Of a stretch of 64,000 nucleotides of DNA, positions 10,197 through 62,239 are shown piece after piece. A model generated the notes under the pieces. The model was not told the DNA's origin. It did no database searches and saw only the letters and a list, made by a program, of their open reading frames with translations. The stretch covers positions 17,685-81,684 of the forward strand of contig JBAZKF010000001.1 of the NCBI GenBank assembly GCA_041650895.1. Reading direction: 5' to 3'. Every line of letters starts with the position of its first letter. The first letter of the stretch is position 1. Source of the DNA: Patescibacteria group bacterium (GTDB taxonomy: Bacteria > Patescibacteriota > Patescibacteriia > 2-01-FULL-39-33). Made by a program: the position numbers and the translations under genes.

Positions 10197-11195
10197 TTAA
10201 ATGGCCATAGCCATTTCCACTAAACGATTGGAGTAACCCCATTCGTTATCATACCAAGCCAGAATTTTGACTAGATTGCCGTCAACAACTCGGGTATACT
10301 TTAAATCCACAATGGCTGATTCGGTGGTGCCGATAATATCGGAAGAAACTAACTCGTCATCGCCGTCGGCAATAGCCAGAATGTTTTTGTATAGAGGGTG
10401 TGAAGACATTTTGCGGAAAGTATCATTAATCTCTTCAATGGTAACGTTTTTTTTGAGGACGGCTGTGATATCTGATAGCGAACCGCAGATAACCGGTACA
10501 CGGATGGAAATGCCGTCAAATTTGTCCTTGAGTGTCGGGATAACTAAGGTTGTCGCTTTGGCAGCGCCGGTAGATGAAGGCGCCATATTGGCAGCGCCGG
10601 CTCGGCCGCGCCTTAAATCCTTGGCATCAGGTCCATCAACTAGGCGTTGGCTGGCAGTATAGGCATGGACTGTAGTCATAATTGATTTAATGACACCAAA
10701 CTTTGATTCCAAAATTTGCATCACTGGAGCAATACAGTTAGTAGTGCAGGAAGCATTGGAGATTATTTTGTCTTGGCCGATCTTTTTTTTCGTTAATTCG
10801 GTGCCGAATACCAGAGTCGTTACTTCATCCTTGGCCGGCGCGGACAGGATGACTTTTTTGGCTCCGGCTAAGGTGTGTTTTTTTAGGTCTTCAGCTTTTT
10901 CAAAGACACCGGTGCATTCCAAGACTGCGTCAACCTTGTATTTTTTCCAAGGTAGTCTAGCTGGATCTTTCTCAGCAAAAACCGGTATTTTTTTACCGTC
11001 GACAATAATATTTTGCTTGTCGTAGGTGACTTTTTTACCGTACCGGCCGTAAACCGTATCATGCTTGAGCATGTAAGCTAAAGTTCGGGTATCGGTCAGA
11101 TCGTTGATGGCGACAATTTGCACCCCTCTCTTTTCCAGAGCTATTTTAAAGGCACAGCGGCCGATACGGCCAAAGCCGTTAATGGCTATTCTCAT
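10197..11195 (-). CDS. gap: glyceraldehyde-3-phosphate dehydrogenase
   Basis: MRIAINGFGRIGR NAD-binding motif and ASCTTNCIAP catalytic Cys motif. Confidence 0.9.
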   Translation of the reverse strand: MRIAINGFGRIGRCAFKIALEKRGVQIVAINDLTDTRTLAYMLKHDTVYGRYGKKVTYDKQNIIVDGKKIPVFAEKDPARLPWKKYKVDAVLECTGVFEKAEDLKKHTLAGAKKVILSAPAKDEVTTLVFGTELTKKKIGQDKIISNASCTTNCIAPVMQILESKFGVIKSIMTTVHAYTASQRLVDGPDAKDLRRGRAGAANMAPSSTGAAKATTLVIPTLKDKFDGISIRVPVICGSLSDITAVLKKNVTIEEINDTFRKMSSHPLYKNILAIADGDDELVSSDIIGTTESAIVDLKYTRVVDGNLVKILAWYDNEWGYSNRLVEMAMAI

Positions 11196-11347
11196 AGATT
11201 TGTATTAGTTAGCTTGATTTGTTGGTATTATAGCATAAAAATAAGAAATCAGGAAAATAATAGGCCGAGGAGATTATGGCGGAAGAAACAAAAAAAACCG
11301 CCAAGCGCATAGAGCGCGAGGCGGTGGTAAGGTGCGTGCATTCTCAG

Positions 11348-11560
11348 CTATTCATCGGGCGGTTTTATTTCTGATTCTAATCTTTGCAGTTCTTGCTGTA
11401 ATTGCTGGATTATTAGCTGATCTTTGTTAATCAGGCTTTTTAGACGTTGACGGAATCTCAGCGTAATCGGTTCATTCAATAGTTCTTCCCATTGACGATT
11501 AGCTAAAGTTAATTGCGCCAGCGTTTTTCTTATTTGTTTGATGCGGCGCTTGACACACAT
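11348..11560 (-). CDS. hypothetical coiled-coil protein
   Basis: 70-aa ORF rich in Q/L/E heptads. Confidence 0.3.
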   Translation of the reverse strand: MCVKRRIKQIRKTLAQLTLANRQWEELLNEPITLRFRQRLKSLINKDQLIIQQLQQELQRLESEIKPPDE

Positions 11561-11575
11561 ACCAGTCCCCCTGTC

Positions 11576-11824
11576 TTAGGCGGACGGTTCAGTGGCCGAG
11601 GCGTTATTGCCGTCGCGTAGCAGTTTTCGTGTTTCGATTAACACTCGATAGCATAAATCTAAACTAGTCTCATAGGTTATTTTTACTCCCGGTTTTATTA
11701 CCATCGGTAGAGCGACGGAACAGGTTCCGGGAAATTCTTTCGACATTTCATCCATTAACCCAATTATCTGTCGGATTTTTTTCTTTATTTGTTTTTGTTT
11801 CGGTGATTTGGGAACGGTACCCAT
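11576..11824 (-). CDS. hypothetical protein
   Basis: 82-aa ORF 15 nt upstream of the previous one. Confidence 0.35.
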   Translation of the reverse strand: MGTVPKSPKQKQIKKKIRQIIGLMDEMSKEFPGTCSVALPMVIKPGVKITYETSLDLCYRVLIETRKLLRDGNNASATEPSA

Positions 11825-12011
11825 GACGCTTTCTCCTTTTTGGTTGCCGACATTGAATTAATCTATGGTTTTAAAAGCCAAACTTTGTTATTTTGTTGTA
11901 ATGTCCTTATTGGTGCCGACCTGAATGGAATGAAAAATTTAGTTTAATCTTAAATTTTTCACTTTATCCAGATCAACAATGGAAAGCGGAAGCCAGTTAT
12001 GATGGCGCAGG

Positions 12012-12815
12012 TTAATCCTTAGTTATTGGAATTTCTACAACTACTGCTTTATTTTGATCTCGTTCCTTATCCAGCTCCACATCAACGCTACAACGCAGGA
12101 CGTGCCAGCCGACGACTACGCCGCGGCCGTGTTTGGTTTTAACTTTAGTGCCTAAGGCCGGTAACTTTGCTATCAGATCTTGATAGTAGGATTCTTCGTA
12201 AGCCAGACAGCATTTGAGGCGGCCACAAATGCCGGACAAGCGTTCGGCTCCGCGATGCACTATTTGCTGGTCTTCGGCGAAATCTGAAGACACGTTGCCG
12301 AGTTTTTTCAGATGACCGCGACAACATTGTCCAAGTCCGCAAGAGCCGACATCGCCCACCAACTTGGCTTCATCTCTGACGCCGATTTGTTGTAAACGTA
12401 TTACGCGATTAAAAGTTCGGCTTAATTCTTTGACTAGTTCACGGAAATCAATACGGCCGTCAGCGATGAATGCAAAAGATAATCTTTGGCCGTCAATAGA
12501 AAAATGAGCATCAACGATTTTCATTTCCAGCCCGTAGCGTTTAACCGCCTCTCGGCAATCCCGAATCACTTCGTTTTTATTTTGGCGGTTTTTTTCCAAC
12601 GCTTCCCAATCGTCGGCCTTGGCTAATCGCTCAACGTTATTGGCGATGGCTTTAGCCTCTTCCTCTCCCGCTTCTTTGAGTTCTGTGATCTTTCCCGCTT
12701 CTTCGCCATATTCGGTATTGATAACGGCAAAATCACCGATAGACAAAGTCAGGCCGCCAGTATTGGCGGCACTGAGCTTTTCCCATTGGTTTATTTCAAC
12801 TGTGGCGATGATCAT
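12012..12815 (-). CDS. ricT: PSP1 C-terminal domain protein RicT (YaaT-like)
   Basis: DGRIDFRELVKELSRTFNRVIRLQQIGVRDEAK plus CGLGQCC...GICGRLKCCLAYE Cys motifs, matching YaaT. Confidence 0.8.
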   Translation of the reverse strand: MIIATVEINQWEKLSAANTGGLTLSIGDFAVINTEYGEEAGKITELKEAGEEEAKAIANNVERLAKADDWEALEKNRQNKNEVIRDCREAVKRYGLEMKIVDAHFSIDGQRLSFAFIADGRIDFRELVKELSRTFNRVIRLQQIGVRDEAKLVGDVGSCGLGQCCRGHLKKLGNVSSDFAEDQQIVHRGAERLSGICGRLKCCLAYEESYYQDLIAKLPALGTKVKTKHGRGVVVGWHVLRCSVDVELDKERDQNKAVVVEIPITKD

Positions 12816-12833
12816 ATTTACTGATAGGCGGTA

Positions 12834-13622
12834 TTAACAGCTGGACGTGCCTTCCAAAATGTATTTGGCCCAGTTGGATATTTTGGCTTCACCCAGAAGA
12901 TCTTTGATTTTTTTGCTGTCGTCCTTAATGAAGATTTGATTAAGCAGGCAGTTTTCTTCGTAAAATTTATTGAGTTTGCCTTCAATAATCTTATCCCAGA
13001 TTTGTTCCGGTTTGTTTTCGCTTTTGAGCTGTTCGCGATAGATTTCTTTTTCTTTTTCAATTACGGCAGCATCAACGGCAGACGGTTCCAGCCAGCGCGG
13101 GCTCATAGCCACTATTTGCATGGCAATGTCATTAGCTAATGTTTCATTGCCACCGGTTAAAACGCAGATGCCGGCCACTTTGAGGTTGGCATGGATATAG
13201 CGCCCCACGACTTCGCCTTCATAAATCCCGAAACCGGAAAGTTGCATATTCTCCCCTACTTTCATCACTAATTCCTTAAGCTGATTTTCTGCCCAAATTT
13301 TAAATTCCTCGGGTTGAGAAACTAAAAGTTTATCCGCAAAGGATTGAACGGTATTGCGGAAATCTTCCGTACGCGATACGAAATCCGTTTCGCAAGCCAA
13401 GCCCACGATAGCGGTTTTCTTGCTGTCGCCGGAAACGGCGATAACGCCTTCTTTGACAGCGCGGTCGGCTTTTTTGGCGGCCTTGATTTCGCCTTTCTTG
13501 CGCATGATTTCGACTGCTTGATCCAGATTGCCCCTCGCTTCTTCTAAGGCAGTTTTGCAATCGCTTAAACCGGCGCCGGTTTTTTCGCGCAGTTGGGAAA
13601 TGAGCTTAACATCAATGGACAT
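12834..13622 (-). CDS. tsf: elongation factor Ts
   Basis: MSIDVKLISQLREKTGAGLSDCKTALEEARGNLDQAVEIMRKKG UBA-like N-terminus. Confidence 0.9.
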   Translation of the reverse strand: MSIDVKLISQLREKTGAGLSDCKTALEEARGNLDQAVEIMRKKGEIKAAKKADRAVKEGVIAVSGDSKKTAIVGLACETDFVSRTEDFRNTVQSFADKLLVSQPEEFKIWAENQLKELVMKVGENMQLSGFGIYEGEVVGRYIHANLKVAGICVLTGGNETLANDIAMQIVAMSPRWLEPSAVDAAVIEKEKEIYREQLKSENKPEQIWDKIIEGKLNKFYEENCLLNQIFIKDDSKKIKDLLGEAKISNWAKYILEGTSSC

Positions 13623-13708
13623 ATGATAGAAAATTAAAATTTTATAAAGTCAAAGCCATAAGATCAATAATGATTTTGTTCATTACTTTACAGGCTTTGG
13701 ATTACGGA

Positions 13709-14410
13709 TTATACTGTTTCCTTTTTTTGTTTCACCTTGCCAAAATTAATGGCCTCGGCGATAACGCGAGTGATCAGATCAACTGAGTTAAGGGCGTCAT
13801 CGTTGGCCGGAATGGGATAGGTGAATAAATCAGGATTGATGTTAGTGTCGCACGGCCCGATAATCGGAATTTTTCTTTTTTTTGCTTCTAAAACGGCGGT
13901 TTTTTCCCGTTTGGCATCAAGAACAAAGACGGCGTCGGGCAAACGATTCAAGCTTTCCAGTCCACCGACCATCTTATCTAAGCGTTCAATCTCTTTACTG
14001 ATCATTACTTGCTCTTTTTTGGTGTATTTTGCCAAGGCGCCGGAATCACGTTGTTCTTTCAATGAGCGGTATTTTTTTATCAGTTTTCCGACATTGACGA
14101 AATTAGTGAATAGTCCGCCGACCCAGCGTTCTTTAATGTAAGGCATGCCGGCCTGTTTGGCATACTTTTCAATCAACGGTTTGGCTTGGCTTTTGGTGCC
14201 AACAAAAAGAATATTGCCGCCGTTAGCGCCGATTTTCTCGGCAAACTCGGCTGCCTCTTTAAGTTTGGCCAGAGTTTGTTCCAAATCAATGATATGGACC
14301 CCGTTGCGTTCGGCAAAGATGAATGGTTTCATCTTGGGATGCCAGCGGCCTTTTTGATGGCCGAAGTGGACTCCTGCCTGGAGGAGTTCCATTAATGTTG
14401 GTAAATTCAT
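13709..14410 (-). CDS. rpsB: 30S ribosomal protein S2
   Basis: GVHFGHQKGRWHPKMKPFIF and VLFVGTK motifs; rpsB-tsf order. Confidence 0.9.
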   Translation of the reverse strand: MNLPTLMELLQAGVHFGHQKGRWHPKMKPFIFAERNGVHIIDLEQTLAKLKEAAEFAEKIGANGGNILFVGTKSQAKPLIEKYAKQAGMPYIKERWVGGLFTNFVNVGKLIKKYRSLKEQRDSGALAKYTKKEQVMISKEIERLDKMVGGLESLNRLPDAVFVLDAKREKTAVLEAKKRKIPIIGPCDTNINPDLFTYPIPANDDALNSVDLITRVIAEAINFGKVKQKKETV

Positions 14411-29487: not shown

Positions 29488-29569
29488 ATTTGATATGTCG
29501 TAGATATTTGAATTAGTACGCGTTAGTTTTTTTATTTGAGTTAAGACAAAACAAAAATCACGTCCATAG

Positions 29570-29640
29570 CTCGGGGACAGGGGCTCGAACCCCGATTAAC
29601 GGCTTCAAAGGCCGCTGTCCTACCATTAGACGATCCCCGA
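29570..29640 (-). tRNA. tRNA-Gln (anticodon UUG)
   Basis: cloverleaf folded by hand: U1-A72 acceptor, D-arm GTCT/GGAC, anticodon loop CUUUGAA, T-loop TTCGAGC; 71 nt, no encoded CCA. Confidence 0.8.
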
Positions 29641-52209: not shown

Positions 52210-52266
52210 AAGTATTTTTTATTCATAACATAATGTTACCAAAACATCATAAAAAAATCCAATGTT

Positions 52267-52315
52267 CACATCTCGGTATCAAAAATATCCCTAAGGGGGT
52301 GTTTTGTCGCATCTG
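52267..52315 (-). promoter_or_regulatory. conserved ~50-nt upstream element, copy 1 (terminator hairpin plus promoter region), upstream of the HD gene
   Basis: about 85% identical to 56112-56164; minus-strand sense CAGATGCGACAAAA-hairpin-TATTTTTGATACCGAGATGTGAAC. Confidence 0.5.
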
Positions 52316-52326
52316 CGGGACAGGGA
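52313..52326. repeat. 14-nt direct repeat of the tRNA-Gln(CUG) 3' end (putative distal att site of the island)
   Basis: CTGCGGGACAGGGA identical to 61635-61648. Confidence 0.55.
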
Positions 52327-52489
52327 TTTACGCGCTCGGTTGTCGCCAAAAAGCGACAACCCCACTTGTCCTGAGTAGCCGTCAATCGCTCCCAGGGTCG
52401 CGATTGCCGTCGCTCAATTATCCGTCTCGGCTTCTGCCTCGACTTATATCTCGCTCGCTACCTGTTCGAATCACTCACATAGACAAATA

Positions 52490-52520
52490 AAAATACAGCT
52501 AATTAAGCTGTATTTTTATT
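52490..52520. terminator. bidirectional intrinsic terminator
   Basis: ATACAGC-TAATTAA-GCTGTAT perfect hairpin flanked by an A-run and a T-run. Confidence 0.55.
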
Positions 52521-52629
52521 TGCTGACTGACTCGGTCTAGAACCGATCCATATCAAGTATTATAAGGGTTTTCGGAATTATTTTCAGAGGCAATTTTAGG
52601 CGTCTCGGTCGGGTATAAATATGTTATGA

Positions 52630-52781
52630 AATGCGACAAATGCGACAGTACTTTGATACTATTTTAAATATAGAATTTTGGACAAAAAAATGAGACAAAT
52701 GAGACACTAAAACAGGATTTTCAAAAAGAAACACAAAAGTGTAATTTGTGTCTAATTTTAGATTAAAATTTGATGAGACAG
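52630..52781. repeat. iteron-like short direct repeats in a non-coding AT-rich stretch
   Basis: AATGCGACA x2 (tandem), AATGAGACA x2 (tandem) plus a third TGATGAGACAG; hairpin ACACAAA...TTTGTGT. Confidence 0.5.
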
Positions 52782-52871
52782 TAAAAAATTGACTGCCTCA
52801 TTTTCAATAAATAAAAACCGCCACCCAAGGATAAACCCTGAGTGGCGTGATGTGTGCAATTGCCGCGTTGC

Positions 52872-53243
52872 TTAGCGACTGATTGGCAGGAATCCCAGCG
52901 ATCCCCAATGATCGCGTTCGAGGGAGCGATCAAACGTCAATCCGTCGGAGCCGAAGTGGCCAATAGAAACGCGATCGTAGTTTCCGCCATAAGAGACTGT
53001 CGGCGTTGCAGGCGGAATCAAATCGGGTTGATTGAAATGAGCGCTGAGCAGCTCGTCGAGCGTGGCCAGCCGATAACCCCACCACTTGGAAAGGATGGAG
53101 ATTCGTCTGAAATTCGCGCCGCGCGCCGCTTGGAAGAAGGCCAATTCGCCTGCACCTTGCGGGCGGTAAGCCTTTTGCCGCAGCACTTTGCCGCGCAAAT
53201 AGGCCACGATAACCCACAAATAATCCAGAATAGTCTGTTTCAT
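52872..53243 (-). CDS. hypothetical protein
   Basis: 123 aa; AGGAGAG Shine-Dalgarno 7 nt before the ATG; lies in a locally GC-rich patch with overlapping alternative ORFs. Confidence 0.5.
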   Translation of the reverse strand: MKQTILDYLWVIVAYLRGKVLRQKAYRPQGAGELAFFQAARGANFRRISILSKWWGYRLATLDELLSAHFNQPDLIPPATPTVSYGGNYDRVSIGHFGSDGLTFDRSLERDHWGSLGFLPISR

Positions 53244-53257
53244 GTCGTATCTCTCCT

Positions 53258-53779
53258 TTATTGGATTTCGTTGATGGCTTTAGTGAGCGAATCGCTGTCT
53301 TTTGCGTAGCTGACGCGTTGCGCCGTTTCAAAAAGTTTGAATATACCATCACAGAAGTTTCCGCGATGAGTATTCTGATAGAGGGCAATCATCTTTTGGA
53401 TAACGATCATGAGCGCCCGCGCCTTCTTGGAATCTTTCGATTCATCCAAGATATGGTCAGTTCTGAGCTCTTCCTCGAATCTCATCTCGCCCTTGCGAGT
53501 ATCGGAGAGATAGTATATGGATACTCTGACGTTTTCATTCTTGTAATCCTTCGGTTCGACGACGATTCCCTCGATTTCCCAAATCGTTGCGGTCGGATGC
53601 CGCCTTCTGGCGGAAACAATCTTGACGGTAATATCATACGCGTCATGGGTGTGGATATAGTCGGGCGTATGAAATTCTACTGTCCGCTCACCCAGCTCAG
53701 TATCGAAAAGGGCAAGCATGAGATCGAGTTTTGATGGACCGCCGTCCACCAGGTGTGTTTCTTCTTTTCTTTGTGTCAT
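53258..53779 (-). CDS. hypothetical protein
   Basis: 173 aa; AAGGAG Shine-Dalgarno before the ATG. Confidence 0.5.
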   Translation of the reverse strand: MTQRKEETHLVDGGPSKLDLMLALFDTELGERTVEFHTPDYIHTHDAYDITVKIVSARRRHPTATIWEIEGIVVEPKDYKNENVRVSIYYLSDTRKGEMRFEEELRTDHILDESKDSKKARALMIVIQKMIALYQNTHRGNFCDGIFKLFETAQRVSYAKDSDSLTKAINEIQ

Positions 53780-54036
53780 ACGACACTCCTTTCAATGTGC
53801 TGCTGCGCATTAGCCGAGGAACGCGCACAACCTCCTTATTCCCCGCCATTCAAGCAAGGAAACGACTTAGCCATACAGCTAAGAATTACTATATATTAGC
53901 ATATAGACATTATTTTGTCAAGTATTTTATCCACAATTAATCGAAATATTATGTATATTTACCTAAAATTAAACAAAAAAATGCCAGTAATTATTGGCAT
54001 TTTTATCGCAAATATTAATAATTCTATCTTTTCTTA

Positions 54037-54342
54037 CTATTTCTGCTTTTCCTGGTATTCTAACACTTTTTCCATCGGAGAAAGGCCGCCCAAAGCCATA
54101 TGAGGGAAGTAATTCCAAGCGTCAGTTATTGTTTCTAAAATATTACTTAATTCCGAGACATCACCGCCCCGGTCGAACCTAGCAATAATCGTCGACATAT
54201 CATCATTATCTTCTTCTTGATAAATGGCATCAAGAATATCTTCCAGTGCAAAGTCGCTCTCGGTTTCTGCAAGCAAATCAATAATGTCTTGTTGGATTGC
54301 TTCGCCTTCAGATAGGATTTGTTGTTGGGAAAGGGGTTGCAT
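54037..54342 (-). CDS. hypothetical acidic protein
   Basis: 101 aa, D/E-rich. Confidence 0.4.
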   Translation of the reverse strand: MQPLSQQQILSEGEAIQQDIIDLLAETESDFALEDILDAIYQEEDNDDMSTIIARFDRGGDVSELSNILETITDAWNYFPHMALGGLSPMEKVLEYQEKQK

Positions 54343-54603
54343 AATGATTTATTATAAAATATATACCACTTGAAAATGAAAAAGATTTTACGCCTGAAGA
54401 TTTTGCTTGGTATAATATGACAATAATAATTGCTGATAATAAAAAACATGACATCTCAAATGATGAGTTGAAGAACAGAGTCAAAGATTTCCTTTTATTT
54501 GCAATAAGATAATATTGAATACTAAAAATACCACGGCAAAACCGTGGTATTTTTGAAGCTAAATAATTGAGGGGACTCAGTCATTTGAATTAGCGTGTAT
54601 TGG

Positions 54604-54750
54604 CTGGAGGTTTTTAATAAAATCCGAACCGAATTTCAGAAAAGCTTGCCCTGAGCGAAGTCGAATGGGTCATAATCGGTCGGGCGGAACCTGCCTGCCG
54701 GCAAACAGGCGAAACATTTGGACGACTGAGGCGGAATTGCAATTTCCAAT
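54604..54750 (+). repeat. ~150-bp island repeat element R1
   Basis: about 90 nt near-identical to R2 (AAATCCGAACCGAATTTCAGAAAAGCTTGCCCTGAGCGAAGTCGAATGGGTCATAA...), shared 3' end GAAACATYTGGACGRCTGAGGCGRAATTGCAATTTCCAAT containing palindrome GAAATTGCAATTTC. Confidence 0.75.
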
Positions 54751-54775
54751 CTTTTAGTGATATTAATAATAGAAT

Positions 54776-55525
54776 CTAGAAATGTTCATTCGGTTTTTCT
54801 CTCAATTCATTCTTAATCCCATATTCGGGATGCTTCTTTATCCAGTCTGAAATGTCAGTCCATTTAAGGCCATGAAAACCAAATTGACCATTCCATTTGG
54901 CACCGTATTCTTTATTTTTTTCAAAACTGAATTTGTGCGCTAATTTAACTGGAGCGAATTTTATGCCTAAGTTTTCTAAATATTTACGTTTAATGACAGA
55001 AATAATCCAATCTTCATTTTCCGCATATTTGTGGCTTGGTGAATCTTCAATATTAATACTTGGATCATTTTGCAATATTTCTAGCAGTTTCTTGCTTCGC
55101 AGACTAAAACCGCCATTGCCAACAACCAACTTATCTTTTACCCATAATGGTGCACCAATATAATCGTATTTCAAATATTCATCATCCCAAGCAGTGGAAT
55201 TCAAAATAAAACCGTCATATTGAATAATCAAAACAAAATCAGTCTTTATATAATTATTCAACTCCTTGAGAATGAATTGCGAGTATTTTTTAATCGATTC
55301 TACGGGGTTGATTTTGATGACATTTTTATTATCGGAAGAAATTGATGATAATAATTTAATATCGGCAAATTCAAAATCTTTGCAACAAATTTCTGCGGCT
55401 TTTATAAGTCGATCAATATCAACACAGTCAAGACCAAACAGTGTTACATTTTTTAGTTTTTTCATTTCTATGGATTGATAAAATGTTTTTGAGTTCTGAA
55501 AATTGTAATTAGCTAACACTGACAC
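54776..55525 (-). CDS. hypothetical protein (GTG start at 55525; alternative ATG at 55465 giving MKKLKNVTLFGLDC...)
   Basis: 249-aa ORF in cassette between R1 and R2. Confidence 0.5.
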   Translation of the reverse strand: MSVLANYNFQNSKTFYQSIEMKKLKNVTLFGLDCVDIDRLIKAAEICCKDFEFADIKLLSSISSDNKNVIKINPVESIKKYSQFILKELNNYIKTDFVLIIQYDGFILNSTAWDDEYLKYDYIGAPLWVKDKLVVGNGGFSLRSKKLLEILQNDPSINIEDSPSHKYAENEDWIISVIKRKYLENLGIKFAPVKLAHKFSFEKNKEYGAKWNGQFGFHGLKWTDISDWIKKHPEYGIKNELREKPNEHF

Positions 55526-55588
55526 GGTCTCATAATAGTTATCTAAAAAATTATTGCCCCATCACGCCACTCACTATAGCTTTTGTAA

Positions 55589-56065
55589 TCATTTTTTAAT
55601 TGAATGCTTATCGGAAAATTTAGGGTTTGCAATGAATTCAGAAGTATCCGTATTGATAAATCCGATGATGTTTTCTGGAGAAATAACATTACTATCTTCC
55701 GTTTTAGAAAAAATATGTTCACTTGATGCCTTGATTGATCTTTCACGTGCTGAATATCCTCCAAAATCAGAAGAGTCGAATCCTTTGGGTACTGCAATTA
55801 GAATAATAATTGTTCTGCCACCATAATCCCAACCATCTAACTTGTGTAGCAAAGAATCTTGATTTTCTGGAATTCTACAGGCGATATCATGTATGGCGTT
55901 CCATTTGGTTCGAAGTCCTTTTTCAAGAATACTATCAGCTATTTCTCGATTTGAAACTCCATGACCCCAAATATCAACTGATTGTTGATATGTTTCCAAT
56001 GTTTTTAACAAATGGGTGTGTCGACTTTCAGAAGATTTTTTTTCAAACTTGTTCATAAATCTCAA
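55589..56065 (-). CDS. hypothetical protein
   Basis: 158-aa ORF preceded by upstream-element copy 2. Confidence 0.5.
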   Translation of the reverse strand: MRFMNKFEKKSSESRHTHLLKTLETYQQSVDIWGHGVSNREIADSILEKGLRTKWNAIHDIACRIPENQDSLLHKLDGWDYGGRTIIILIAVPKGFDSSDFGGYSARERSIKASSEHIFSKTEDSNVISPENIIGFINTDTSEFIANPKFSDKHSIKK

Positions 56066-56111
56066 GTTTATTTTACTATCTTGTTGTTAAAATATCAAAC
56101 AGTTCTAACGT

Positions 56112-56164
56112 CCACATTTCGGTATACAAAAATACCCCTAAAATAGGGGCATTTTGTCGCATCT
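56112..56164 (-). promoter_or_regulatory. conserved upstream element copy 2
   Basis: CACATTTCGGTATACAAAAATACCCCTAAAATAGGGGCATTTTGTCGCATCTG; hairpin CCCCTAAAATAGGGG. Confidence 0.5.
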
Positions 56165-56318
56165 GGAGGTCTTTAATCAAATCCGAACCGAATTTCAGAA
56201 AAGCTTGCCCTGAGCGAAGTCGAATGGGTCATAACCGGTCGGGCGGAATTCCCCCCCAAACCCCTCCTTCCGCCCGACCGAAACATCTGGACGGCTGAGG
56301 CGAAATTGCAATTTCCAA
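56162..56318 (+). repeat. ~150-bp island repeat element R2
   Basis: contains a perfect 12-bp hairpin GGTCGGGCGGAA-(TTCCCCCCCAAACCCCTCC loop region)-TTCCGCCCGACC. Confidence 0.75.
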
Positions 56319-56338
56319 TTTTTCTTTGGCGGCATTAA

Positions 56339-56773
56339 TTATATAATTTTATCAACCCACAGAACAGTGCCTTCTCTTTTAAATCCATATCTTTCGATAA
56401 ACTTAGAAAATAACTCCTGATCTTCGGCATTCACACAAAGCATAATATAAGTATATCCAAGATCTTTAACTTGCTTCAATCCTTCCTCTGTTAATTTTGC
56501 GGCCACTCCCAATCCGCGAGCGGATGGTGTCACGTAAAGATTTTCCCAAGTAATTTTCTTTGTTGGTATGTGAGCGGAATAAAAAGAAAAGCCAATAATT
56601 TCATTTTTTGTTTTTGCCACTAACAGAACATCACTAGGACTTTGACACCATTTTTTTAATTGTTCTTTACTCCAAAAAATTCCACTAGCACTAGCAAATT
56701 CTTTCTGTAAAGCACCTAGTTTATAAATCTCATCAATGTCCGTAATATTCATTCTAGATATTTGAAAATCCAT
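56339..56773 (-). CDS. GNAT family N-acetyltransferase
   Basis: acetyl-CoA binding motif region ...ARGLGVAAKLTEEGLKQVKDLGY...; 4 nt after the cyclodipeptide synthase gene. Confidence 0.8.
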   Translation of the reverse strand: MDFQISRMNITDIDEIYKLGALQKEFASASGIFWSKEQLKKWCQSPSDVLLVAKTKNEIIGFSFYSAHIPTKKITWENLYVTPSARGLGVAAKLTEEGLKQVKDLGYTYIMLCVNAEDQELFSKFIERYGFKREGTVLWVDKII

Positions 56774-56776
56774 ATA

Positions 56777-57478
56777 TTATTCGATATCGGCTATGCCTGT
56801 TTTATTTATAATTCTTAATTTATTCCTTAAACCATTATACTCATTACTTTTAATAATTTTTACTACTAATTCATCAAATTTACCTAATCCCGGATACAAA
56901 ATAACTGAATACAATTCACCACGATTAATAATCGAAACTCCATTCAAAAATAATGGCAATTCTTGTAGGACATAAAGAGCCACTGACTCGGCTCGATCTT
57001 TTGAAATAGTGCGTCCTCGTATTTTTAGCATTTCGTTAGAAATTTCCATTACCGAATTATAAAAAGCCTTTTGTTCAGAAAATTCCCTCATTAATACCTC
57101 TCGTTGTTTAACAAATTTTGGCGTTAAAGCATCATCATAGTTGGCGATAACAACCTTCTTTTGATCTTTTGCGGGCAATCTTGAGACGATTACTTCGACT
57201 TCTTGTCTTTTCTCATCTTCCATTTCGAAAGCCTTTTTTAATGATTGTGCTCTGCTTAAATTATCAATATACCTTAAATTAGAAACCTGAAGTCTCCCTG
57301 GGATTAAAATTAACAAGGATTTTTTAGTATGTATGAGGCCAAAATCAATAAGTTTTTCAAGATTATTTTTCGTGAACCATTTATTACCAAAACTTAAACC
57401 TATCCAAAGATTATATCTTTTTTTAAAGATATAATCTTTGGGAATTAATAATGTTTCTTTTATTTGAATTATTTCCAT
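56777..57478 (-). CDS. tRNA-dependent cyclodipeptide synthase (CDPS), XYP-type
   Basis: IGLSFGNKWF (catalytic Ser in the G-x-S-x-GN-x-x-F motif, compare AlbC IGISAGNSYF), LYVLQELPLF (AlbC NYVLAEAPLF; Tyr/Glu catalytic pair), SVILYPG (Y-P); about 233 aa as expected. Confidence 0.75.
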   Translation of the reverse strand: MEIIQIKETLLIPKDYIFKKRYNLWIGLSFGNKWFTKNNLEKLIDFGLIHTKKSLLILIPGRLQVSNLRYIDNLSRAQSLKKAFEMEDEKRQEVEVIVSRLPAKDQKKVVIANYDDALTPKFVKQREVLMREFSEQKAFYNSVMEISNEMLKIRGRTISKDRAESVALYVLQELPLFLNGVSIINRGELYSVILYPGLGKFDELVVKIIKSNEYNGLRNKLRIINKTGIADIE

Positions 57479-57514
57479 ATACGATTAATCTTATATGATC
57501 ATACCAAAATTATT

Positions 57515-57739
57515 TTATTCACAATAATAAAATACGCCACCATATTGATTTTTTTCTTGAAAGCTTAGGCTATCATAATCTTCAACACAGCTTCTAAATT
57601 TATCGTATTTATCTTCAGATTCATAATAATTATCTGACCACTCCTCAGCAGTCATACTTTCATATTTACCAATACTACAACCACTTAAAAACAGGAGAAA
57701 TAGTAATGACATAAATACAATGTAATATTTTTTTATCAT
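57515..57739 (-). CDS. small lipoprotein
   Basis: 74 aa; signal peptide with lipobox LSGC; acidic, 4 additional Cys. Confidence 0.5.
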   Translation of the reverse strand: MIKKYYIVFMSLLFLLFLSGCSIGKYESMTAEEWSDNYYESEDKYDKFRSCVEDYDSLSFQEKNQYGGVFYYCE

Positions 57740-57789
57740 AACAAATATACATTTTATTTTAGATTCAAACTAATATTATAAAATTAACT

Positions 57790-59604
57790 TTATTTAATCC
57801 CAGCCACTTTTTTTTCTTCGTCTGTCATTAGATGCGCGGGATTAATAGACTCCCACCAATAATTATTAAGACCTCTTTTTTGTATCGTTGTGATGTATTC
57901 AATTAATTTTAGTCTTACCTCAGTTTCTTGTAAATTCATTAATCCTGCAAGCTGTATACGAATATTTTTATCAAATAGAATTTTTTTTACGAATGGCATA
58001 ATTCTCTCTCCATAATATCTGCCAAAATCAGCCCATAAAGGTTCCCCATTATGCTCGGACAGTACAACAAGTAGGAAATTGGCCTGAAATTGAAAATTTT
58101 CAATTTTTCCATCCATTTTTGGTACTAATTCAATAAGCCAATCTTGATTTTTTAAATATTCCCTAATGTATTCATTCACTTTAGTTGAATGACCAGTCAG
58201 GGCACGAGTATAATGAAAATGATTATCTTCTAAAAAAGACATCGGTGGCTGATCAAAGTAATTTGGATTATCGAACTTAGTTTCAAGTAAAATTTTGAGT
58301 GGCGCATAATTATCTCTGGCTATACAAATAGTAGCTATAATGTATAAGATTTCAACAATTATAACTTCCGGAACCGCAATCAGAGAAATTAGACCGGATT
58401 TATTATTTGTAAGTTCAACTAAAGCTGTCAGATATTCACAGTATATTTTTATCTGATTTTTGTTGCCATATACTGAAATTGTAGCACCTAAATATATATA
58501 CTGATAACTACTCGCTTCCATGCGCGAAATAGCCTCTGGTATGCGATCCACATCCTGACCAATTTCCTGAAAAATTATTTCCCATTCCTTTTTTATTTTA
58601 GTGATTAATTTGTGGCACAATCTCTCAAAATTTAATATATTAATAGTTTCCACACTAGACCCGGAAGAACCAACAACAAAATTAATTGTTTCCTGCAAAA
58701 GTTTGTTTTTTTCATCCATCGTTAAATCAATCACTGGCACAGAAAAAATAGCATTTTGTAATTCTGGCGTTTTTGGTATCTCAATGGTTTCGGGCTTTAA
58801 ATGCAACCTCTTTTTAAACACTGGGAGAGTGAGATTACCCTCTAATTTACCTAACATGGTTGGTGTTTGAGTGTGTTTCCATTTGTCCCTAGCACGAGAG
58901 CTTACACCTTCTGCGATTGGACTAAAAATGTCTGTAGCTGAAAAATATTCACTAGGACGATTTTTTTGGAGTTCATCAAGTACATAATATGTAAATAAAC
59001 CATTTTTAAGTTCAGGATCTTCGATTGAAAGTTCATCATCTTTACTGGCAGTAAAAATCATACTACCATTACCAATTACTGTATTTGAAAATGATTTAAT
59101 ATTTTTAAATCCCTTGGTATTGGGGATTGGGTAATTTTTGGCATTTTTACTTACTGACCCACTAAAACAAGAATCAATAAAAATTAAATTTACTTTTGAT
59201 TTTAGGGATGTGAAAATATTTTTTATATCCTCTACTGATAAACAAGTATTTACAATATCATGAGTTGCATCATACGGCACTAAAAAGCTAAGTCCTGAAT
59301 TAATATTATTAGGATCATCAACTAATGCTCCGTGACCGGAATAGAAAAAGAAGAAAACGTCATCTGACTCGATATTATCCAGTAATTCTTTTCCTAACGC
59401 AGTCTTGATTTCTGAAAGAGTCGCCTCTTCATCAACTAAAAGTTTATTATACCCAATATTGCTAATATTTTGTTGAAATAATGAGAAAAACTCTGTTGCA
59501 TCTTTTTCTGCAAACGCTAGATTTGTAATTTGATTCTTATGCTTAGAAATTCCAATCGCAACAATATGATGTTTCATGAAATTAATTATTTTAGTAATTC
59601 CCAC
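57790..59604 (-). CDS. caspase-like (peptidase C14) domain protein with ~350-aa unknown C-terminal domain
   Basis: HIVAIGISKH...FFFYSGHGA (His) ... LIFIDSCFSG (Cys) dyad; GTG start with GGGAG Shine-Dalgarno, alternative ATG at 59577. Confidence 0.7.
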   Translation of the reverse strand: MGITKIINFMKHHIVAIGISKHKNQITNLAFAEKDATEFFSLFQQNISNIGYNKLLVDEEATLSEIKTALGKELLDNIESDDVFFFFYSGHGALVDDPNNINSGLSFLVPYDATHDIVNTCLSVEDIKNIFTSLKSKVNLIFIDSCFSGSVSKNAKNYPIPNTKGFKNIKSFSNTVIGNGSMIFTASKDDELSIEDPELKNGLFTYYVLDELQKNRPSEYFSATDIFSPIAEGVSSRARDKWKHTQTPTMLGKLEGNLTLPVFKKRLHLKPETIEIPKTPELQNAIFSVPVIDLTMDEKNKLLQETINFVVGSSGSSVETINILNFERLCHKLITKIKKEWEIIFQEIGQDVDRIPEAISRMEASSYQYIYLGATISVYGNKNQIKIYCEYLTALVELTNNKSGLISLIAVPEVIIVEILYIIATICIARDNYAPLKILLETKFDNPNYFDQPPMSFLEDNHFHYTRALTGHSTKVNEYIREYLKNQDWLIELVPKMDGKIENFQFQANFLLVVLSEHNGEPLWADFGRYYGERIMPFVKKILFDKNIRIQLAGLMNLQETEVRLKLIEYITTIQKRGLNNYWWESINPAHLMTDEEKKVAGIK

Positions 59605-59792
59605 GCTTCAACTCCCAAGGCATTGGCTAATTTATATAAATTTTCTAATGTAGGGTTTACCCGGCCACTTTCCACCCGGCAGATATAGGCGCGGTCAATT
59701 CTGCTTGAACGAAAAACGTCGCCTTGAGTTAGGCCTTTTTCCTCTCGTATCCGTTTAAAATTAACGGCAAGTTTTTTGCTTAATTTATGCAT
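59586..59792 (-). CDS. XRE-family helix-turn-helix transcriptional regulator
   Basis: 68 aa; IREEKGLTQGDVFRSSRIDRAYICRVESGRVNPTLENLYKLANAL. Confidence 0.75.
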   Translation of the reverse strand: MHKLSKKLAVNFKRIREEKGLTQGDVFRSSRIDRAYICRVESGRVNPTLENLYKLANALGVEAWELLK

Positions 59793-59951
59793 AGTTATTC
59801 ACAGATATTTTACCAATTATTGTATATCTTAACAATATTGTTGTATAATACAATAGAGAAGTGGGGGTTTGTGTTAAAAAAAAGAAAAAGTTTGATTTTG
59901 TCCAAAATATAGTTCGAGCCGATTTTTTTAATCTGGTTCTTTGGCGGTTTT

Positions 59952-60069
59952 ATTCCGCCTCAGCCGTCCAGATGTTTCGGTCGGGCGGAAGGAGGGGTTT
60001 GGGGGGGGAATTCCGCCTGACCGATCATAATTTTTGTTGAAATTCGGTTCGGATTTGTTCATAAACACC
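59952..60069 (-). repeat. island repeat element R3 (inverted orientation relative to R1/R2)
   Basis: reverse complement shares AAATCCGAACCGAATTTCA and the GG(T)CRGGCGGAATTCCCC...CCTCCTTCCGCCCGACCGAAACATCTGGACGGCTGAGGCGGAAT hairpin region with R2. Confidence 0.7.
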
Positions 60070-60144
60070 CAGCCAGTTTCGCTTTTCATTTTTTAAAACA
60101 GAATTCCAACCGTTTTTTGGCTTAAATTCAAATTTTTTGCCTTG
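60070..60144. repeat. 75-bp perfect inverted repeat, left copy (flanks the recombinase gene)
   Basis: exact reverse complement of 61563-61637, checked base by base. Confidence 0.85.
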
Positions 60145-60206
60145 GTTCCGATTACTATCGGAACGCCAGAATCAAACTTTTTCTTTTTCTTTAATTCAAT
60201 ACAAAT

Positions 60207-61694
60207 ATGAAATACTTTCTTTACGCCCGCAAGTCGACAGACGAAGAGGAGCGTCAAGTCCTTTCAATTGAAGCCCAGCTCGCAGAGCTGAAGGAGTTAG
60301 CCGCCAAAGAAAAATTGGAAATTGCTGACTCGCTCTGCGAGTCTAAAACCGCCAAAGAACCAGGCCGAAAAATTTTCGGCGAAATGCTCGCTCGGATTGA
60401 AAAAGGTGAAGCCGACGGAATTTTAGCGTGGCACCCAGATAGATTGGCCAGAAATAGCGTTGATGGTGGGAAGATTATCTACATGGTGGATATTGGCCAG
60501 ATTAAAACGCTGAAATTCCCGACTTTTTGGTTTGAGAATACTCCGCAAGGTAAATTCATGCTCAATATCGCTTTCGGCCAGAGCAAATACTATATTGATA
60601 ATTTAAGCGAAAATGTTAAGCGCGGATTCAGACAAAAGTTAAGGCGTGGCGAATATCCCAACAAAGCGCCTATTGGCTATCTTAATGACCGCATGGCTAA
60701 AACCGTGCTTATTGATCCTCTGCGCGCCAAGCTGATAATCAAGATGTTTGAGATGTACAGCACGGGAGAATTTTCGCTTAAATTTCTAAAAGATAAGTTT
60801 TGCGATATCGGTCTGACCAGTAAGCGAGGAAAAATCCTGACTGTCGGCATGATTTCTAATATATTGAGCAATCCCTTTTATTGCGGAGTATTCAAGTTTA
60901 ATGGCGAAATATACCAAGGCAAGTACGAGCCGATTATTTCCAAGAAGCTTTTTGATGAAGTTCAGGCGGTAATGCGGGATCGCGGCCGGCCGCTCGGGCA
61001 AGACAAGCACGACTACGCATTTACAGGACTAATGAAATGCAAATGCGGCGCCTGCATTACCGCTGAACGGCAAAAAGGCCATATCTATTATCGCTGTACG
61101 AAAAAGCTCGGAGCCTGCGATGAAAAGTATATCCGCGAAGAAAACTTGCTGGAGCAATTCTATGGCCTTTTTCAAAAAGCTTCTTTGTCTGATGACTGGA
61201 TTGACAAGATGCTCGCCAAACTGGACGAGGAACAGAAAAGCGATATGAAGTCATCTATTGGTCTGATTGATGAGGTTAAAGCGCAAATTGGTGGCCTAGA
61301 GAGCAAGTTAGACAAGTTATTAGATGACCGATTAGAAGGGTTATTGGACAAGGACGACTATTTGCGCAAGAAAGAACAGCTCATCAATCAAAAAATCACT
61401 TTTGAGGACAAAATCCAGTCAATCAGGCAAACAGGAAATAATTGGCTCGAACCGATGAGAGAATTCCTTTTCGCCAATAAACAAACCAAAAAAGTCGCCA
61501 ATGGCGGCGACCTTCTAGAGATTAGAGCATTTATTAAAAAAATCGGCTCGAACTTTATTTTGCAAGGCAAAAAATTTGAATTTAAGCCAAAAAACGGTTG
61601 GAATTCTGTTTTAAAAAATGAAAAGCGAAACTGGCTGCGGGACAGGGACTCGAACCCCGATACCACCCTCCAGAGGGGCGTGTCCTACCATTAG
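60207..61694 (+). CDS. large serine recombinase (resolvase/invertase catalytic domain plus recombinase and zinc-ribbon/coiled-coil domains)
   Basis: N-terminal YARKSTDEEERQVLSIEAQ (catalytic Ser region), RLARN, CxxC...CxxC zinc ribbon; 3' end runs through the right IR and antisense into the tRNA. Confidence 0.85.
   Translation: MKYFLYARKSTDEEERQVLSIEAQLAELKELAAKEKLEIADSLCESKTAKEPGRKIFGEMLARIEKGEADGILAWHPDRLARNSVDGGKIIYMVDIGQIKTLKFPTFWFENTPQGKFMLNIAFGQSKYYIDNLSENVKRGFRQKLRRGEYPNKAPIGYLNDRMAKTVLIDPLRAKLIIKMFEMYSTGEFSLKFLKDKFCDIGLTSKRGKILTVGMISNILSNPFYCGVFKFNGEIYQGKYEPIISKKLFDEVQAVMRDRGRPLGQDKHDYAFTGLMKCKCGACITAERQKGHIYYRCTKKLGACDEKYIREENLLEQFYGLFQKASLSDDWIDKMLAKLDEEQKSDMKSSIGLIDEVKAQIGGLESKLDKLLDDRLEGLLDKDDYLRKKEQLINQKITFEDKIQSIRQTGNNWLEPMREFLFANKQTKKVANGGDLLEIRAFIKKIGSNFILQGKKFEFKPKNGWNSVLKNEKRNWLRDRDSNPDTTLQRGVSYH
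61563..61637. repeat. 75-bp perfect inverted repeat, right copy, abutting the tRNA-Gln 3' end
   Basis: CAAGGCAAAAAATTTGAATTTAAGCCAAAAAACGGTTGGAATTCTGTTTTAAAAAATGAAAAGCGAAACTGGCTG. Confidence 0.85.
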
Positions 61695-61705
61695 ACGATC
61701 CCGCA
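61635..61705 (-). tRNA. tRNA-Gln (anticodon CUG)
   Basis: hand-folded cloverleaf; U1-A72; anticodon loop CUCUGGA; T-loop TTCGAGT; about 80% identical to the tRNA-Gln(UUG) at 29.6 kb. Confidence 0.8.
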
Positions 61706-61790: not shown

Positions 61791-61799
61791 TATAACACT

Positions 61800-62150
61800 G
61801 AGTATGACGGATAGTTACTCTTTGGCCTTAGGCCGAAGAGAGGAAAGTCCGAACACCCTTTTCGGCGCAAGCCGGAATGTCGCGGTAATGGGTAACGCCC
61901 ACCCGGACAGTCGTAAGGCTGGCCGAGGACCAGTTCCACAGAGACAATACTAACGAGATGCGCAAGTATTTCGCGAAAGGTGAAAAGTGTAGCGAAGTAT
62001 TAAGTTGAGAGTGAGATATCTCCTCAAATTAATGCCACCCTACTCAACTCCCAGCGATGGGCAGTTGTGGTAAACTCTACCTGGTGCAACCCCGTTTCGG
62101 GGGCTTGATCATGCCGGTAACGGCAATGACAGACAGATGACTATCGTTTT
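61800..62150 (+). ncRNA. rnpB: RNase P RNA (bacterial type A-like)
   Basis: universally conserved GAGGAAAGTCCG(AAC)... P4 strand, GGTAACGCC, terminal P1 pairing GGATAGT/ACTATC, followed by T-run. Confidence 0.7.
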
Positions 62151-62206
62151 TTACGGCCGCAAGGTTAGTAAAAAATACAGAATTCGGCTTATAGTCATAT
62201 TCAGTT

Positions 62207-62239
62207 AAAAAATACTTCGCTGCTGCGAGGTATTTTTTT
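62207..62239. terminator. bidirectional intrinsic terminator between rnpB and rnhA
   Basis: A6-TACTTCGC-TGCT-GCGAGGTA-T7. Confidence 0.6.

Follow-up and report, generated by a model that had tools for sequence, protein, structure and literature searches.

A serine-recombinase island at the 3′ end of a Patescibacteria tRNA-Gln gene, its likely composite origin and its inverted spare attachment site

We analysed a 64,000-nucleotide stretch of DNA (hereafter the window) of a Patescibacteria group bacterium, taken from contig JBAZKF010000001.1 of assembly GCA_041650895.1. An earlier note on this DNA had described three copies of a hairpin-containing repeat, R, which divide a genomic island into cassettes. 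We consider it likely that 54607–61631 is a composite integrative island, placed at the 3′ end of a tRNA-Gln gene by a tRNA-targeting large serine recombinase (LSR). This reading is carried by the boundaries of the insertion, the association of R with the LSR gene, the geometry of the attachment half-sites and the conservation of the layout, all of which are observed in the window and in its relatives. As judged by comparison with these relatives, the island is a member of a widespread and undescribed family whose members always retain a second, spare attachment site in inverted orientation. All sequences are metagenome assemblies and were compared by sequence; contigs of relatives are designated by L-numbers, and proteins by P-numbers.

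Results

An insertion at the 3′ end of tRNA-Gln

Three contigs of relatives in which the site is unoccupied, L033, L034 and L035, were reached through homologues of the nearby RNase H gene (90–92% identity). In all three, the flank Y is joined directly to tRNA-Gln and the sequence corresponding to window 54607–61631 is absent; the unoccupied site reads ...TTGAATTAGCATGTATTGGCTG|CGGG(A/T)CA(G/T)GGACTCGAACC. In the window, Y (54523–54606, + strand) is the native 3′ flank of tRNA-Gln; it consists of one terminator hairpin followed by ...GTGTATTGGCTG, and would serve as the B arm of the attB of the island. The tRNA-Gln(CTG) gene (61632–61705, − strand), identified by both ARAGORN and Rfam, would serve as the B′ arm. 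The left core TGGCTG (54601–54606, + strand) is the reverse complement of the tRNA 3′ end, CAGCCA. The right core TGGCTG (61632–61637, + strand) lies within the LSR open reading frame (ORF), at the end of a segment termed rcA, and the 3′ CAGCCA of the tRNA gene is now supplied by the element. Because Y abuts tRNA-Gln in the three relatives, the 7,025 bp of 54607–61631 represent an insertion bounded by TGGCTG; together with the presence of TGGCTG at both ends of the insert, the unoccupied sites identify CTG|R1 and rcA-CTG|tRNA as true insertion junctions. A flank of the Y type is also joined to R in L021.

Crossover would have occurred within the 6-bp identity TGGCTG, with CTG as the minimal core of all junctions. 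The attB site would be composed of Y, TGGCTG and the tRNA, and the attP site of the LSR 3′ end (rcA), TGGCTG and R. The core at L023 is TTGTTC, and it is the same at its three sites.

Look-up of the RNase H gene returned only contigs ending in or just before the tRNA, and exact-protein look-up of the HD gene returned no match. Contigs of the relatives often break off at the tRNA, or shortly before the LSR gene begins (L028, L030, L031, L033 and L035). The target tRNA-Gln(CTG) is located directly beside one class A RNase P RNA gene (61799–62207). A second tRNA-Gln gene (TTG, 29569–29640), 32 kb away, has stretches of 22–23 nt in common with the target. In L034, the region between a 101-residue gene and Y contains a different serine recombinase gene of 437 residues (12515–13828) and a gene of 428 residues (11198–12484); only ∼180 nt (54343–54522) occupy the corresponding spot of the window.

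The recombinase and its gene

The LSR gene (60207–61694, + strand) encodes a protein of 495 residues with Resolvase (PF00239), Recombinase (PF07508) and Zn_ribbon_recom (PF13408) Pfam domains; the motif YARKSTDEE includes the conserved serine. It is the sole recombinase in the island, where no IntI is found. The ORF runs through two segments, rcB (61533–61562, + strand) and rcA (61563–61637, + strand; the last conserved LSR codons and the right core), then crosses the core at 61632–61637 and ends inside tRNA-Gln(CTG). Together, rcB and rcA would form the P arm of the attachment site. The LSR is less than 30% identical to any phage or plasmid LSR, and the PDB gave one remote match only; among 8,000 scored database proteins, 7,989 match it with E ≤ 1e-20. 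Homologues that are 36–39% identical to it are also present in L011, L015 and L021.

Several features of the gene are recorded here as side observations. Codons 41–46 (60327–60343) are palindromic (GACTCGC TCT GCGAGTC, arms of 7 bp); in other clades the arms read GCCTCGC...GCGAGGC, a compensatory change within coding sequence. The palindrome is flanked by both of the segments that are copied next to R2 and R3, and codons 28–55 show unusually high nucleotide conservation across phyla, synonymous sites included. P0003, P0028 and P0115 are ORFs of 718–865 residues, in which another serine recombinase runs into the internal part of an LSR gene of the window family; the break, ...VPT|LAFGQSKYY, is at about codon 120. 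Two viral contigs, L041 (60–410) and L042 (4–354), cover LSR residues 1–117 only, with a similar break position. As far as these breaks indicate, one element family, possibly phages, appears to integrate into LSR genes of the window family.

R repeats and the half-site signature of the R head

The 19-mer AAATCCGAACCGAATTTCA has three exact matches in the 64-kb window, at 54620 (+), 56179 (+) and 60038 (−); shuffled controls averaged 0.07 matches, and three were never reached in 100 shuffles. R1 and R2 align in direct orientation over 86 nt at 97% and over 45 nt at 91%, and R3 aligns with R2 in inverted orientation over 68 nt at 97%. The matches and the alignments confirm three copies, with R1 and R2 direct and R3 inverted, at the places given before; the repeats extend further than the lengths assigned to them at that time. 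R1 (54607–54754, + strand) is the left end of the 7,025-bp insertion; it is a decayed copy with a head of type a, in which the 3′ arm of the hairpin is missing. R2 (56166–56333, + strand), which would be the distal end (attR side) of the resident element, contains the P′ half-site, the perfect hairpin and tail 1 (t1). R3 (59933–60069, − strand) is internal, and together with the adjacent segment A it makes up an attP-like site that is intact and has the opposite orientation to the LSR 3′ end.

The hairpin of R2 has arms of 12 bp (56237–56248 and 56268–56279) and is perfect in R2 alone; that of R3 (60011–60022) has a single mismatch, and R1 retains the 5′ arm only (54678–54689). The perfect 12-bp hairpin ascribed to all three copies by the earlier note therefore stands for R2 alone, and the tail reported as common to them is present, with two mismatches in R1. 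The hairpin is positioned after the LSR stop codon of the attP configuration, and it also faces the end of the cargo operon; its loop occurs in both orientations. Most likely, the GC-rich hairpin acts as a transcriptional insulator or terminator at the element ends, and it could alternatively be a protein-binding palindrome. R1 and R2 have in common one 36-nt insert, GAAAAGCTTGCCCTGAGCGAAGTCGAATGGGTCATAA (54639–54675 and 56198–56234), which is missing from R3 and from 15 of 15 R copies of other contigs. R2 looks recombinant, with an R1-like left half and an R3-like right half.

Counted from the core, the T-loop-like motif CGAAC begins at position 14 of the tRNA or Q arm (Q is a conserved right arm described below), whereas its start in the R arm is position 19. 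This was found in all seven lineages measured (the window, L002, L008, L023, L025, L026 and L032; right arms only), the positions in L025 being 13 and 18. In the Listeria integrase, the zinc-ribbon motif is 5 bp nearer the centre in attB than in attP, which underlies the discrimination between attP and attB (PMC3783163). The 5-bp shift of CGAAC corresponds to this shift, and R thus carries the signature of a serine-integrase attP half-site. The conserved 19-mer highlighted in the earlier note is this half-site motif. The R head (first ∼30 bp) would therefore be the element-side P′ half-site of the attP of the adjacent LSR, mimicking the tRNA T-loop.

In the attP configuration, the R head is also coding: the LSR frame crosses the core into R and, in most lineages, stops 13–15 codons further on (...IRTEF...). 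The resulting tail, x(F/Y)x(K/Q)IRT(D/E)F, is conserved in 7/7 lineages, with synonymous differences between lineages, and L036 was also read for the tail comparison. Integration exchanges this tail for translated tRNA antisense. Of the best 120 database homologues, at least 56 end in tRNA-antisense tails of the DSNP type, and ∼7, counted by eye, have related (I/V/L)(R/L)T(F/Y)F tails; the regular expression IR[TS][DE]F has zero matches among the same 120. The 19-mer alone, without other R similarity, occurs in seven further contigs of the species-representative collection, none of them from Patescibacteria. Their IRTEF reading was set aside, because the 19-mer itself fixes the peptide.

Junctions at the CTG core

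The earlier note had listed five junctions at which left and right arms meet in varying combinations around CTG. Its five strings are all correct as written, and a sixth CTG junction, 52525|52526, had been overlooked. The pattern is not due to chance, since the recurring arms are long homologies. The left arms X and X′, which end in GTCGCATCTG (52306–52315 and 56156–56165), are 81% identical over 62 nt; A (60070–60144) and its inverted twin rcA (61563–61637) are 100% identical over 75 nt, with AAACTGGCTG at 61628–61637 and its inverted copy at 60070–60079; the tRNA and the block P, which starts at 52316, have 14 nt in common, and the direct repeat CTGCGGGACAGGGA is found at 52313 and 61635. 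Site-specific recombination at a CTG-containing core, as proposed earlier, is supported by the adjoining LSR gene, the unoccupied site and the attP/attB geometry of the right arms.

X (52249–52315, + strand) is the left arm of a second attachment locus. It contains one terminator-like hairpin followed by GTCGCATCTG, with its CTG end at 52313–52315, and it is also homologous to the left flank of R in L008. Between X and Q lies P (52316–52525, + strand), a 210-bp insert; its first 11 nt, CGGGACAGGGA, are antisense to tRNA-Gln, and its end is formed by a palindromic terminator, with CAG...CTG in the arms, and CTG. The P module recurs in L012 and L017. Its flanks are inverted fragments of the tRNA-Gln 3′ end, in L012 (11210–11440) GGGACAGGGACTCGAAC and GTCCCTGTCCCGCA, and P could represent a miniature element or else a tRNA remnant that was displaced. 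Q (52526–52811, + strand) contains one tRNA-like arm, with AGAAC at attB spacing, and then a conserved non-coding block. It is 71% identical to L034 and 84% identical to L008 7489–7773, which directly follows the LSR-rcA-CTG junction there; in L008, Q is the chromosomal right arm, that is, the integration target. Q begins with a tRNA-like T-arm remnant, and the motifs ATGCGACAAATGCGACAG and ATGAGACAAATGAGACAC are doubled in it.

A second 2 × 2 set of arms, {X or Z, rcA} × {Q, R}, is found in the relatives; Z is the terminator-type left arm of L012, L017 and L034, and X″ is the L008 counterpart of X and X′. The combinations are X″|R...rcA|Q in L008, Z|Q in L034 and Z|R in L012 and L017, so that arms independent of the first set show the combinatorial pattern again. 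In L008 and L015, a full element (X″|R...LSR-rcA|Q) is located where the window has X|P...|Q, which indicates a second chromosomal site used by the element family. X′ (56095–56165, + strand), the left arm of X type at R2, resembles the internal remainder of an attR that would have formed at an X|Q-type site.

Composite origin of the island

The resident element of 5.5 kb would span 56166–61637 and comprise R2, the cargo, the internal attP and the LSR gene, with R2 and X′ as its attR. R1 and Y would form the outer attR, R1 being an older or co-mobilised junction. On the simplest account, the element would first have resided at an X′|Q-type site, would then have been excised by way of the more distal R1, presumably through a circular intermediate, and the 7.0-kb composite would have been integrated at Y|tRNA. 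The 1.56 kb between R1 and R2 are probably donor flank, carried along when the older R was used for excision (accretion). Alternatively, the R1–X′ stretch (54607–56165) may stem from sequential integration of a non-autonomous unit. Tandem units at the tRNA are seen in the window (Y|R1...X′|R2...rcA|tRNA) and also in L002, L016 and L018, and LSR-less elements are present in L011 and L012. We had also regarded 52316–54606 as an older element, 'E1'; it was dropped, for in L034 Q...Y is likewise present, as resident DNA lying between two attachment loci.

Several points weigh against the island reading as a whole. To explain the X′|R2 junction within the insertion, either a co-mobilised donor flank or a non-autonomous unit has to be assumed in addition, and the junctions of an rcA remnant with R in L002, L016 and L018 require a tandem dimer or a non-canonical attP × attL reaction. 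On the left side, Y, X, Z, rcA and the palindromic terminator that closes P are alike in little more than a T/A-rich stretch and CTG. This likeness is loose for two LSR half-sites; the left arms are poorly conserved, and P and B half-sites are not definable there. Catalysis by the LSR is inferred from adjacency and conservation. No recombination directionality factor was recognised among the ORFs of the island, although such factors are too diverse to be excluded in this way. Finally, inverted repeats of 75–190 bp are prone to mis-assembly; the layout is nonetheless present in at least nine independent assemblies.

R and its element family in other contigs

R-homologous sequence was found in only three contigs of the one-genome-per-species collection, all of them from Patescibacteria. 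The metagenome collection gave 12 R loci, nine of which are new, and the viral collection gave no R copy. In total, R was found in only 12 other distinct contigs, with one or two copies each. CTG precedes 16 of the 18 tabulated R copies, the three of the window included, and most R contigs also show the LSR gene, an LSR 3′-end remnant or tRNA-Gln within the stretch examined.

A miniature inverted-repeat transposable element (MITE), or a generic repeat unrelated to the recombinase, would be compatible with the size of R (∼140 bp), its internal palindrome and the presence of three copies within 5.5 kb. The three copies of the window are all in the island, however; there are no target-site duplications apart from the att core, and the flanks are always arms of the att type. 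With 1–3 copies per contig, R is not the scattered high-copy repeat that would have spoken for a MITE, and the search of relatives suggested in the earlier note found it at att-type junctions, mostly with the LSR gene or tRNA-Gln. On copy number and context we rejected the MITE, to which we attach next to no probability. Rfam gave no match to R, P or Q at gathering and E-value thresholds. R is neither a MITE nor a known RNA.

Canonical elements have exactly two R copies, an inverted pair around variable cargo. The tail-1 copy is the distal end, and the tail-2 copy abuts A-LSR-rcA-tRNA (window, L002, L008 and L020); in the LSR-less elements of L011 and L012, the tail-2 copy abuts one palindromic terminator and tRNA-Gln. 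The order of the family is distal R, cargo and a helix-turn-helix (HTH) gene on the − strand; then IRa, B, t2′, inverted R, A, a hairpin and IRa′; then the LSR gene on the + strand with rcB, rcA and the core; and then the tRNA on the − strand. This layout is present at tRNA-Gln, tRNA-Asn and tRNA-Ser in Magasanikbacteria, Brocadia, Nitrospira and other contigs, with LSRs that are ∼60% identical. The R sequences of different lineages are unrelated; the two copies within one element are 90–100% identical over 110–145 nt, and the A/rcA pairs are 97–100% identical over 51–87 nt.

The earlier note had viewed the island as an integron-like cassette array driven by a serine recombinase. On such a reading, R would resemble attC, and the units bounded by R would be independently mobile cassettes captured and shuffled by the recombinase. 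R1 and R2 do bound a two-gene unit as direct repeats, four of the four arm combinations occur, and tandem junctions of an rcA remnant with R exist in L002, L016 and L018; in addition, the R hairpin is conserved, with one compensatory change of its stem in L023 (T-A to G-C). The canonical elements, however, have two inverted R copies around one cargo block with its own HTH regulator. None of the loci compared has more than two units or an attI-like platform, and neither a tyrosine IntI nor attI is found in the island. The R head fits a double-stranded LSR P′ half-site followed by an ORF tail, not a folded single-stranded site, and hairpin differences among close R copies are single and non-compensatory. 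We therefore regard an integron-like platform as quite improbable. Serial LSR integration with tandem build-up at the tRNA is the part of the proposed mechanism that stands, and R would be the P′ arm and terminal module of one integrative-island family, not an attC-like site of each cassette.

An inverted attP and patches of the LSR gene

R3 sits between two inverted copies of the 3′ end of the LSR gene, an arrangement overlooked in the earlier note. A (60070–60144, + strand) is a 75-nt, 100% identical inverted copy of 61563–61637, that is, of LSR codons 453–477 and the core. A and rcA are identical inside each genome and different between genomes. R3 and A would make up a second, intact attP, which lies in inverted orientation immediately before the LSR gene.

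Beside this site are shorter patches that match the LSR gene. IRa (59876–59900, + strand) is an inverted match to the LSR 5′ untranslated region at 60167–60191 (IRa′), and B (59903–59932, + strand) is an inverted match to LSR codons 443–452 (rcB). The R3 tail, t2′ (59933–59952, + strand), is an exact inverted copy of codons 47–53, and the R2 tail, t1 (56308–56333, + strand), is the reverse complement of codons 32–40 at 26 of 26 nt. The contiguous mosaic is also present in L002, L008, L023, L025, L026 and L032, and L031 has IRa and B only; the tail beside the distal R of L023 is an inverted copy of codons 35–40. Across lineages, IRa is 17–25 nt, B is 27–30 nt (codons ∼443–455) and t2′ is 15–20 nt (codons 47–54) in size. 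The patches are 97–100% identical to the LSR gene or 5′ untranslated region of their own element, and co-vary with it by lineage.

One reading of these patches is that R, or the non-coding block upstream of the LSR gene, is a guide, bridge or antisense RNA, whose pairing partner would be the recombinase mRNA or the element ends. IRa, B, t2′, A and t1 are exactly complementary to parts of the LSR transcript and co-vary with it; the region 59870–60400 folds with a z-score of −5.6, and a perfect TATAAT is located upstream of the mosaic on the + strand. However, the inverted pairs are interleaved (B<A<rcB<rcA), so that a single nested RNA fold cannot hold them all, and two of the patches are direct repeats in L036 while still being 92–100% identical. 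R has no Rfam match, the promoter scan gave no + strand promoter upstream of the LSR gene, and neither R1 nor R2 folds better than shuffled sequence. Large serine recombinases are not known to rely on RNA. Owing to the interleaved pairings and the direct repeats of L036, the RNA explanation was not relied on, and we rate it as very improbable.

The L036–L039 variant differs from the other loci. The orientation of the LSR segment is identical in 9/9 full loci; in L036–L039 the LSR gene is in the opposite orientation, with a deletion, and this form is fixed. It points the same way as tRNA-Ser, the HTH gene and the cargo. The variant retains one A and one distal R, and its IRa and codon 28–40 patch are direct repeats of 92% and 100% identity. 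In L036 (3489–7870), and likewise in L037–L039, the LSR is fused in frame to an XRE HTH protein at the B junction (P0117, 559 residues). L036 also has a second element of the standard type at a second tRNA-Ser (10887–12690), in which a truncated LSR gene lies within a 147-nt inverted repeat. We tried patch B as an alternative exon that fuses the LSR to the HTH protein and rejected it; an open frame across the fusion exists in L023 and the L036 lineage alone, a stop coming after 11–47 codons in the six others. The L036–L039 arrangement is the one expected from inversion between A and rcA and subsequent deletion between the two rcB copies, and this hints at a flip of the LSR segment. The inverted attP and the patches might accordingly be parts of a programmed DNA switch, operated by A–rcA inversion through the LSR or host recombination; we hold this to be unlikely. 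The viral collection has only five LSR-related loci, none of which is informative on isomers. The conserved inverted attP and the gene-matching patches look new.

Cargo and neighbouring genes

Between R1 and X′ are two genes on the − strand, a DUF5672 gene (54776–55525, assigned by Pfam) and a gene of 158 residues (55589–56065). The DUF5672 gene has an 87% identical counterpart in L012, immediately beyond the distal R of the element there; L012 has the same RecJ-RNase H-tRNA-Gln synteny as the window.

The cargo block (56339–59792, − strand) encodes, according to Pfam and PADLOC, a GNAT protein, a cyclodipeptide synthase, a 74-residue protein, a caspase-like protein of 604 residues and an XRE/C-protein-like HTH protein. 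For the 604-residue protein, PADLOC gave matches to caspase and PDC-S65. All of the cargo is on the − strand, forming a single block with its own HTH regulator. The GC content is 0.28–0.36 at 54–60 kb and ∼0.44 elsewhere; the cargo block has 0.28–0.35, compared with 0.44 for the genome. Cargo varies between copies of the element, and sister elements have restriction-modification, HEPN or GmrSD genes behind the same HTH gene. Together with the cargo of the window, these make the block look like a defence or toxin module.

Discussion

LSR islands that sit at a tRNA end, show tandem accretion and have an integrase ORF spanning the site are a known kind. In Dehalococcoides, serine-recombinase islands with the integrase DsiB occupy the 3′ end of ssrA, a tRNA-like gene (PMC3146451). 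Like the island of the window, the ssrA islands are arranged in tandem and separated by target-end repeats, the repeat is embedded in the integrase gene, the cargo is variable, and accretion of non-autonomous units was proposed (PMC3146451). Different from it, they have a six-gene module, a CcrB-like recombinase with a second small recombinase, and a 20-bp direct repeat, and neither an inverted attP copy nor self-matching patches were described for them (PMC3146451).

The composite SCC/SCCmec islands also use large serine recombinases (CcrAB) and form arrays of units separated by att-type repeats. SCC/SCCmec units have terminal inverted repeats, which is a further likeness to the window. Their target is rlmH, they have two recombinases, and the recombinase gene is internal, without overlap with the site.

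With the phage-type large serine integrases (Listeria A118/LI, Bxb1 and phiC31), the LSR of the window has in common the Resolvase, Recombinase and zinc-ribbon domains and a short core, and also a recognition motif whose distance from the centre is 5 bp greater in attP than in attB (PMC3783163). Unlike these integrases, it targets the 3′ end of a tRNA, its ORF spans the core, and a second inverted attP flanks the gene; its family consists of islands of 3–6 kb, not phages, with no directionality factor recognised.

Like integrons, the island has gene units beside a recombinase gene, separated by palindrome-containing repeats. Integrons, however, depend on the tyrosine recombinase IntI, recombine attC as folded single strands and have attI and a Pc promoter, none of which is present here, and their cassettes are promoterless and all in one orientation, which is not the case in the window. 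Like shufflons and invertible segments (Rci; Hin/Gin/Cin), the island has short exact inverted repeats, some of them coding, clustered around a recombinase gene. Unlike in shufflons, no alternative orientation was seen among the nine full loci, the only rearranged form (L036) is fixed, and the repeats of the window differ from one another and are not copies of one site.

Our literature search found no description of a duplicated inverted attP, a state-dependent LSR C-terminus or co-varying patches for serine integrases. Taken together, these features may point to a new control of directionality. If the switch were real, a flip would rejoin the LSR to the ...IRTEF C-terminal exon, behind the tRNA promoter. 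This would amount to control of excision and integration without a recombination directionality factor, common to thousands of tRNA-targeting serine-recombinase islands across phyla.

The 7,989 database matches, with the antisense tails of the best homologues, indicate a very large set of serine integrases that target tRNA 3′ ends. This large family sits on tiny islands with cargo of the defence type. Its layout lets attP, attB and the core be read straight from the sequence, which is useful for mining integrases for genome engineering and also helps to map islands in uncultured phyla such as Patescibacteria.

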